DNA from: a virus
Taxonomy: Duplodnaviria; Heunggongvirae; Uroviricota; Caudoviricetes
Length of the DNA: 8,952 bases
Virus record (IMG/VR): IMGVR_UViG_2627854008_000013
Direction: 5' to 3' (one strand)
Position 1 is the first letter of the stretch, and the number at the start of each line of letters is the position of its first letter. Shown here piece after piece: positions 1,963 to 2,464 of the stretch. The position numbers and the translations under genes were made by a program. Below the pieces are notes generated by a model, which worked only from the letters and a program-made list of their open reading frames with translations, ran no database searches and was not told the origin of the DNA.

Positions 1963-2156
1963 GAATCCTCCCGGCCTGGATAATATTGTGAGTAAAATGA
2001 GGAGCGGGCTGAAGTCCGGAAGTTACAGGACAATGGCAGAAGATAGACAACAGCCCGCAATATGAAAAAGGCCGCGCTATTGCGCAGAGTGATTACTGTC
2101 GGATATTATTCGCCAGCTGAAATATTACTTCACGTTTTGTTGTTTATTCCTTGCCG

Positions 2157-2184
2157 CCCGCGTCTCCCAGCGCGGGATTTTTTT
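2157..2184 (+). terminator. Candidate rho-independent terminator oriented for the plus strand
   Basis: Perfect 6-bp GC stem CCCGCG (2157-2162) / CGCGGG (2171-2176) with an 8-nt loop, followed by ATTTTTTT (2177-2184) on the plus strand. On the minus strand the tract reads as A-run before the stem, so it is plus-strand specific. Confidence 0.4.
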
Positions 2185-2425
2185 GTCCATAAGAAAGCCC
2201 CTCCGGAGAGGGGCTGGAGAGTGGCGCTATGTGCCATTGCATGGTGCCGGGTGCCTCCCGGTGAGTTCAGTATCAGCACCTGAACCCGCACAGAAAGGAT
2301 AAGGGTCGGGACAAAACACCAGTTGCTGATTGCCCCTCCGCACAGGGGGATTCACCATGCCAGTTTCTTTTTACAAACTCCCCGCAAACCAGACAACAGT
2401 CAACCGCCTGAATTGTGAGACATTT

Positions 2426-2449
2426 AAAAAAAAGCCCGCAAAAGCGAGC
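2426..2449 (-). terminator. Rho-independent terminator after the tRNA cluster
   Basis: Minus-strand hairpin GCUCGC-UUUU-GCGGGC (plus 2434-2449, one U.G pair) followed immediately by U8 (plus A-run 2426-2433). It lies 15 nt past the CCA end of the last tRNA. Confidence 0.65.
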
Positions 2450-2464
2450 CAGGGAAAATAAGTG

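Follow-up and report, generated by a model that had tools for sequence, protein, structure and literature searches.

A tRNA–esterase interval in a Stx-type prophage, read as a cargo-free small RNA dyad module

What does a prophage carry between its tRNA cluster and its esterase gene when the toxin genes of Shiga toxin (Stx) phages are missing from that place? The question is raised by an 8,952-nucleotide (nt) stretch of the Caudoviricetes record IMGVR_UViG_2627854008_000013, referred to here in its entirety as the window, in which a 502-bp spacer separates three tRNA genes from a NanS-p-type esterase gene. An earlier note, made from the sequence alone, had read this spacer as an empty toxin slot of about 0.5 kb, containing only hairpins and left either in an stx-negative relative or in a phage that had lost its cargo. 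We instead consider it very probable that the interval is the small RNA (sRNA) dyad module that is standard in lambdoid and Stx-type prophages, in this case without a protein-coding moron upstream. The hairpins are real, and they belong to two known sRNA genes as their structured parts and terminators. The features of the spacer and its edges are as follows.

2464-1963: spacer of 502 bp between the tRNA cluster and the DUF1737 open reading frame (ORF)
2426..2450, minus strand: intrinsic terminator of the tRNA cluster, stem 2450-2434 followed by eight T at 2433-2426 (terminator scan, sequence)
2426..2430, no strand: cargo (moron) junction, unoccupied (BLAST breakpoints against 10 loci; junction sequences)
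2185..2389, minus strand: STnc100-family sRNA gene, EcOnc27/EcOnc05 type (Rfam RF02076)
about 2003..2184, plus strand: convergent Hfq-dependent-type sRNA gene, EcOnc08/21/42 type (sequence identity to mapped RNAs)
1956..1984, plus strand: sigma-70 promoter-like site, ATGCCA-17-GATAAT (promoter scan)
1963..2002, minus strand: 5' leader and ribosome-binding site (RBS; GGGAGGA, 1972-1966) of the DUF1737/esterase gene (sequence; nearly invariant across relatives)

Two convergent sRNA genes in the spacer

The late strand of the spacer contains an STnc100 gene, whose match to RF02076 is far beyond chance (139.5 bits for a gathering score of 47, E 1.5e-31) and covers model positions 1-206 of 206. The characteristic stems are all present, namely a closing helix (GCAUGGUG/CACCAUGC), three internal hairpins and a 3' intrinsic terminator, this last element lying at 2215-2196 and being picked up independently by the terminator scan. 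The conserved core begins with GCATGG at 2360. Across 16 STnc100 copies, RNAalifold predicted 37 base pairs, nearly all of which were kept, with compensatory changes in 6.

Comparison with related loci (L numbers) showed STnc100 directly upstream of the esterase gene in phi296 (L001), in phi24B (L002) and in 11 of 12 further loci, a position thus shared across L001-L010, L012, L014 and L015; the twelfth locus, L013, has PasD2 in its place. The gene is found 3' of stx2::cat in phi24B, of stx1B in VT1-Sakai, and of stx2B both in Stx2a and Stx2c phages and in strain JNE141411's Stx2a prophage, and it occupies the same position in TerB-carrying and cargo-free prophages. The Northern probe used for EcOnc27 (Tree 2014 supplement) corresponds to the 3' part of the phi24B STnc100 in reverse complement, and STnc100 therefore corresponds to the Hfq-bound EcOnc27 (sRNA103) of ~235/247 nt. 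EcOnc27 has been located just after stx2B (PMC7873438, PMC12711010, PMC12370729), with STnc100 placed ~75 nt downstream of stx2 (PMC12370729), and of its two forms (~235/247 nt) the 247-nt one is destabilised in an hfq deletion mutant (Tree 2014 supplement, PMC4104026). By analogy, STnc100 would be expected to yield an expressed, Hfq-associated transcript in this prophage as well. As its promoter we propose a candidate site (-35 TTGTCT, -10 TAAAAA) recognised by eye in conserved alignment columns.

PasD was considered as another identity for the late-strand RNA and rejected. PasD1 and PasD2 of enteropathogenic Escherichia coli (EPEC) are proposed structural homologues of STnc100, PasD and STnc100 alike being placed beside the esterase gene (bioRxiv 10.64898/2026.05.13.724894); the window RNA is identical to PasD2 at only 110 of 199 positions, lacks both the PasD probe sequence and the PasD seed (UGUGAG), and is of the STnc100 type.

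Two relatives carry tandem STnc100 copies of different alleles in the tRNA-esterase interval, at 1913-2103 and 2381-2590 in an O18:H1 strain (L004) and at 2958-3164 and 3444-3654 in deer strain 48 (L005). This site can thus hold the sRNA module in duplicated or stacked form.

On the plus strand, window positions 2003-2184 are identical at 177 of 182 positions to E2348C_1409.E2348C_1408.IGR, an sRNA of EPEC E2348/69 detected by ligating and sequencing interacting RNAs (RIL-seq). Shorter segments match RNAs of enterohaemorrhagic E. coli (EHEC): 2110-2182 matches EcOnc08 (71/73) and 2019-2104 matches EcOnc21 (84/86). The EPEC sRNA was defined via Hfq RIL-seq and RNA-seq, with chimeras that include cfa, dppA and tir; its authors equated it with EHEC EcOnc08/21/42 and described a target motif, GGCAAGG/GGCAGGG, complementary to CCUUGCC (PMC8550237). 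A seed-like CCUUGCC is present at 2149-2155 of the window RNA, which by homology would be expected to pair with target mRNAs in an Hfq-dependent manner. The gene ends in an intrinsic terminator (stem 2157-2176, then seven T) that stops 1 nt from the STnc100 3' end at 2185. The promoter-like site at 1956-1984 overlaps the start codon and RBS of the esterase gene, its GATAAT is invariant in 9 of 10 aligned relatives, and it is suitably placed to act as the promoter of the plus-strand sRNA, a role that its sequence and position suggest. The minimum-free-energy fold of this RNA (z = -2.3) is weak on its own and was not relied on.

Two other identities for the convergent partner were examined and set aside. 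A search for the anti-sRNAs AsxR and AgvB (RF02703, RF02702; ~42-nt 3' region) gave no match at E ≤ 10 in window 1900-2500; the same tool detected AsxR in phi24B and in strain SY033 (L015), and position and a -35-like TTGCGC, noted by eye, are all that the plus-strand element and AsxR have in common. The partner of STnc100 thus varies, being the short anti-sRNA AsxR in those two genomes. EcOnc15 of Tree et al. (Sp15) was also rejected, because its place is upstream of stx1A, in the StxS position between Q and stx1.

The cargo junction and the proposed working of the module

In every cargo-bearing relative, the left homology arm (methyltransferase gene end, tRNAs and terminator) stops at 2427 in BLAST alignments, and the right arm starts at 2430-2419. 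The junction falls within the T-run of the tRNA terminator, the equivalent of which is annotated in phi24B as a terminator upstream of the stx genes. In the window, this T-run continues directly into TTTAAATGTCTCACAATTCAG, the start of the conserved module, with zero intervening bases. The cargo found at the junction is diverse and consists of stx2AB (1,335 bp) in the Stx2a phage Stx2_95 (L008), stx2c in Stx2c_PV98-693 (L009), stx2::cat in phi24B, TerB+DUF3927 (758 bp) in UPEC-245U (L003) and a SAM-dependent methyltransferase gene in deer strain 48. The spacer downstream of this point is shared. An alignment of 10 sequences was conserved from CTCACAATTCAG to the esterase ATG, variation being mostly confined to two internal STnc100 segments, and the ~460-bp module was kept downstream of the cargo in every relative checked, Stx1 and Stx2 phages included, at 80-97% identity, with the sRNA pair downstream of stx1B as well as stx2B.

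Judged from these alignments, the slot is a point junction at 2426-2430, and the remaining ~460 bp is a conserved downstream flank common to these phages. The earlier note was right that relatives carry stxAB (stx2a, stx2c) between the tRNAs and the esterase gene, and that the interval offers a site for moron gain or loss. That site is limited to a few bases, however, since the breakpoints fall at 2427 and 2430 and not at the ends of the spacer, and a toxin slot 0.5 kb long does not fit a module that is retained downstream of cargo. The spacer is conserved as an apparent functional element (STnc100 and a convergent sRNA), an outcome that the note itself had set against its interpretation.

Cargo is not confined to this point in all relatives. 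In JNE141411 (L014:8082-8405), STnc100 is separated from the esterase gene by an iraM anti-adapter gene on the opposite strand, and cargo can therefore also sit downstream of STnc100, replacing the convergent sRNA. In prophage PP6 of EPEC E2348/69 (L012:1612-3297), ISEc13 occupies the cargo site and stands in place of the 5' part of STnc100, the IS end being visible in the alignment as GTGTATAAGAGACAG. The STnc100 score falls to 75 bits in this prophage, and the adjoining convergent sRNA is intact and RIL-seq-detected.

Expression, Hfq dependence, targets and read-through in this prophage can be sketched from the homologues and from lambdoid and Stx-phage biology. The tRNA cluster ends at its own terminator, and the ~460-bp module begins right after the T-run and comprises two convergent, terminator-to-terminator sRNAs, STnc100 on the late strand and the EcOnc08/21/42-type RNA on the opposite strand. 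In a lysogen, each RNA would be transcribed from a promoter of its own, would bind Hfq and would act on host mRNAs in trans. Consistent with a regulatory role, overexpression of EcOnc27/sRNA103 raises fimZ and espA transcript levels. Upon induction, Q-modified polymerase starting at pR' would read through the terminators at 4308-4288, 3977-3960, 2450-2426 and 2215-2196, and would also pass the hairpin at 2087-2072, to reach the esterase gene and the lysis genes; a moron sited at 2426-2430 would, like stx, owe its expression to this read-through. Morons such as stxAB enter at the one point between the tRNA terminator and the dyad, which is unoccupied here, a common state.

Several points weigh against this interpretation. 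A consensus promoter scan of the minus strand returned no promoter for STnc100, and covariation across the STnc100 stems is modest (6/37 pairs) among copies that are closely related. Both 5' ends are uncertain: that of STnc100 would lie at 2389 by the Rfam model, at 2360 by analogy with PasD, or at ~2430 if the 235-247-nt EcOnc27 species applies, and the plus-strand RNA measures 182 nt by the EPEC RNA-seq estimate vs a ~271-nt Northern band in Sakai. Expression in this window is predicted from homologues, and what the two RNAs do is poorly defined in published work.

A further role for the dyad, as a cis-acting guard of the lysogeny state on the first late gene past the moron site and as a source of homology arms for cassette swaps, seems to us unlikely, if the least improbable of the additional or competing explanations. 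The plus-strand RNA would start over the esterase RBS and start codon, to which the longer version of this RNA (~271 nt in Sakai) would run antisense. For the swaps, toxin and other cassettes would be exchanged between prophages through arms provided by the tRNA terminator and the invariant dyad.

Cargo loss and other rival readings

Junction types were counted across 5,426 complete E. coli genomes, none of which matched the spacer region at more than about 97% or the entire window at more than about 96%. The cargo-free junction is intact in 937 of these (about a sixth), a stx2B-to-dyad junction is present in 528 and a DUF3927-to-dyad junction in 1,103. The E. coli type strain carries the 86-nt junction of the window with 100% identity. 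Nil3 is the sole deposited phage record in which the junction is intact, and Stx2 and Stx2c phages match the left half of the junction only. The whole window was searched for traces of the stx genes, the stx promoter and other cargo, by tblastn with Stx1A/B and Stx2A/B and by blastn (word size 7) with four cargo segments, and only chance matches were returned, all with E of about 0.4 or above. The right flank at the junction reads TTTAAATGTCTCACAATTCAGGCGGTTGACTG, the allele shared by cargo-free and TerB-type prophages, the stx2 allele being CTGTAATCTGTGTCACAATTCAGTCAGTTGACAG, and the right arm is 95-97% identical to non-stx prophages vs 80% to the Stx2a phage.

Loss of stx is thus unsupported, because no stx remnant was found and the flank allele is of a non-stx type, while the presence of the junction in the type strain and in 937 genomes points towards an old and widespread allele rather than a recent deletion. 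By sequence comparison, the better reading is that the prophage is an stx-negative mosaic relative with a common, old junction allele. This retains the first of the two origins offered by the earlier note and drops the second; the remnants of the stx promoter or toxin gene ends that it had suggested looking for are absent from the window.

A recent loss of stxAB from a former Stx phage, by deletion between the terminator T-run and the T-rich start of the dyad, would have a possible route, as would a scarless loss through flank recombination. Some cargo has T-run microhomology at both edges (in the TerB type, CTTTTTT, cargo, then ATTTTTAAAT), a clean deletion through it would leave no scar, and Stx2a prophages are among the matches that cover most of the window. 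The flank allele, the right-arm identities and the occurrence of the same 86-nt junction in the type strain all run counter to such an event, which we regard as improbable.

Less probable again is that the spacer is functionless, leftover non-coding DNA where stxAB sat or could sit. The position of stx2AB between the tRNAs and the esterase gene in relatives would fit this view, as would the lack of Pfam matches among the spacer ORFs. However, the cargo point is a 5-bp junction and not 0.5 kb, the rest of the spacer is retained downstream of cargo in Stx1, Stx2 and other prophages, no stx remnant is detectable, and the spacer matches two experimentally detected sRNAs.

The interval also lacks a credible ORF, as the earlier note had said. 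Five ORFs of at least 40 amino acids overlap the spacer, none with a Pfam match at E ≤ 1, and a PHROGs scan of the five returned one family only, phrog_27294 (function not assigned), matched by a 43-aa ORF at 2330-2461 on the plus strand (E 3.2e-17). This ORF overlaps, in antisense, the tRNA terminator, the cargo junction and the STnc100 5' end, and the window differs from the copy in Sakai prophage Sp4 by a 1-nt indel at about 2434, EPEC PP6 having the same extra base. Because of this antisense position and the 1-nt indel in close relatives, phrog_27294 looks spurious, which suggests a family of ORF calls made over the sRNA region. That the spacer encodes small proteins, such as this ORF or those of the annotators in phage records, is the least credible reading of all, since the phrog_27294 match and the hypothetical proteins annotated across the region in phi24B and phi296 are outweighed by an ORF that spans terminator and junction and is thus broken in every cargo-bearing relative, by non-triplet indels between close relatives (that at about 2434, and the gaps in the variable loop of STnc100, of 4, 3 and 8 nt), by the lack of Pfam matches and by equivalent ORFs that are partial pseudogenes in RefSeq.

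Known systems and late-gene context

The arrangement of an sRNA dyad without cargo is already known, and the window adds a further instance of the Sp4-type cargo-free layout. Convergent sRNAs between a moron and a conserved phage ORF were described by Tree et al. 2014 (PMC4104026), and dyads of Hfq-binding sRNAs have been reviewed in at least eight Sakai prophages (PMC7873438). The nearest example is Sp4 of the O157:H7 strain Sakai, which has the same order of ileZ-argN-argO, terminator, dyad and nanS-p homologue (ECs1088) and no protein-coding moron. Its spacer of 489 bp is 93.7% identical to that of the window, and the Hfq-crosslinked EcOnc05, EcOnc08 and EcOnc21 map there, EcOnc05 within STnc100. 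Sp4 differs in the internal variable loop of STnc100 (window 2320-2290) and in having, upstream of the tRNAs, an AraC-family gene in the place of the window's methyltransferase gene, while the nonsense codon in the esterase gene is a feature of the window.

Stx2 phages of the 933W/Sp5/phi24B type have the same upstream tRNA cluster and terminator and, as in the window, a late-strand STnc100 (EcOnc27) directly upstream of nanS-p with a back-to-back convergent partner. In these phages, however, stx2AB lies between the terminator and STnc100, where the window has nothing. Their partner RNA is the 53-nt anti-sRNA AsxR (RF02703), whereas that of the window is the unrelated and longer EcOnc08/21/42 type, and the STnc100 of the window is identical to the phi24B copy at only 146 of 222 positions. 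The EPEC sRNA E2348C_1409.E2348C_1408.IGR (PMC8550237) has the same orientation, antisense to the late genes, the same location directly upstream of the esterase gene and the same CCUUGCC, but in PP6 the upstream ISEc13 truncates its STnc100 partner, which is intact in the window.

The value of this comparison lies mainly in annotation. Intervals of this kind should be annotated as an sRNA dyad (STnc100 and a convergent partner) rather than as empty DNA or hypothetical small ORFs, and prophage screens for gain or loss of toxin or other cargo should compare the handful of bases that separate the tRNA terminator from the dyad. For biology it brings nothing new, as the architecture was described in 2014 and the cargo-free state recurs in the sizeable fraction of complete E. 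coli genomes reported above.

The minus strand carries every gene of the window. In late-transcription order, the main features are as follows.

8952-8299, minus strand: IS3-family transposase ORF, first in this order
7640-8305, minus strand: PerC-domain ORF of 221 aa, after the transposase ORF
4377..4772, minus strand: Q antiterminator gene, 131 aa (Pfam PF06530 Phage_antitermQ, E 1.6e-52)
4288..4308, minus strand: terminator-like hairpin directly 3' of Q, candidate tR' (terminator scan)
between the Q hairpin and the methyltransferase gene, minus strand: ORF of 96 aa, then a second hairpin at 3977-3960
2764..3813, minus strand: DNA methyltransferase gene, 349 aa (PF01555 N6_N4_Mtase, E 1.4e-43)
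2465..2714, minus strand: tRNA cluster of tRNA(CAT), tRNA-Arg(TCG) and tRNA-Arg(TCT) (ARAGORN and Rfam tRNA matches)
1729-1962, minus strand: DUF1737 ORF, 77 aa (Pfam)
1-1695, minus strand: SASA/DUF6645 esterase ORF, 564 aa (Pfam)

Between the PerC-domain ORF and Q, the late strand encodes, in order, a Dam-type methylase, RusA, a KilA-N protein and a DUF968/HNH protein. Pfam, ARAGORN and the terminator scan uphold the order of Q, terminator, tRNA cluster and NanS-p-like esterase reported in the earlier note, which had omitted the methyltransferase gene at 2764-3813; this gene has the same position in Stx2_95 and JNE141411. The description of the region as Stx-phage-like is likewise sound: Stx2a prophages are among the best full-length syntenic matches and cover most of the window, the one in JNE141411 being the best of all in synteny (90% cover, 92% identity), and the late synteny of Stx-converting phages (Q, ileZ-argN-argO tRNAs, nanS-p) is present, although stxA and stxB are absent between pR'/tRNAs and the esterase gene of the window.

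The hairpin at 4308-4288 is a candidate tR' by analogy with lambdoid phage organisation. The interval from the Q stop codon to this hairpin (4288-4376, minus strand) would be expected to hold pR' and an early terminator, and could yield a short StxS-like pR' transcript.

The tRNA cluster is annotated ileZ-argN-argO in Sakai Sp4. Its first gene (2639-2714, minus strand) is tRNA-Met(CAT) according to ARAGORN, and an identical gene is labelled tRNA-Ile (ileZ) in RefSeq and in the Sakai annotation. The latter label implies that the CAT anticodon is lysidine-modified, as we presume, and reads AUA.

The NanS-p-type esterase gene (1..1962, minus strand) is split into its DUF1737 and SASA/DUF6645 ORFs by an in-frame TAA at 1729-1731. 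Comparison of translations with the intact homologue of strain SY033 (local ...SNPEYYFVV...) identifies this codon as a Tyr78-to-stop change, and the 564-aa esterase ORF could restart at the ATG at 1695.

At the far end of the window, the IS3-family transposase ORF (8299-8952) has no counterpart in any syntenic relative, their homology beginning at 8292. The PerC-domain ORF abuts this transposase ORF and, at 221 aa, exceeds the ~164 aa of the PerC genes of relatives, and for these reasons the insertion sequence has probably altered its 5' end.
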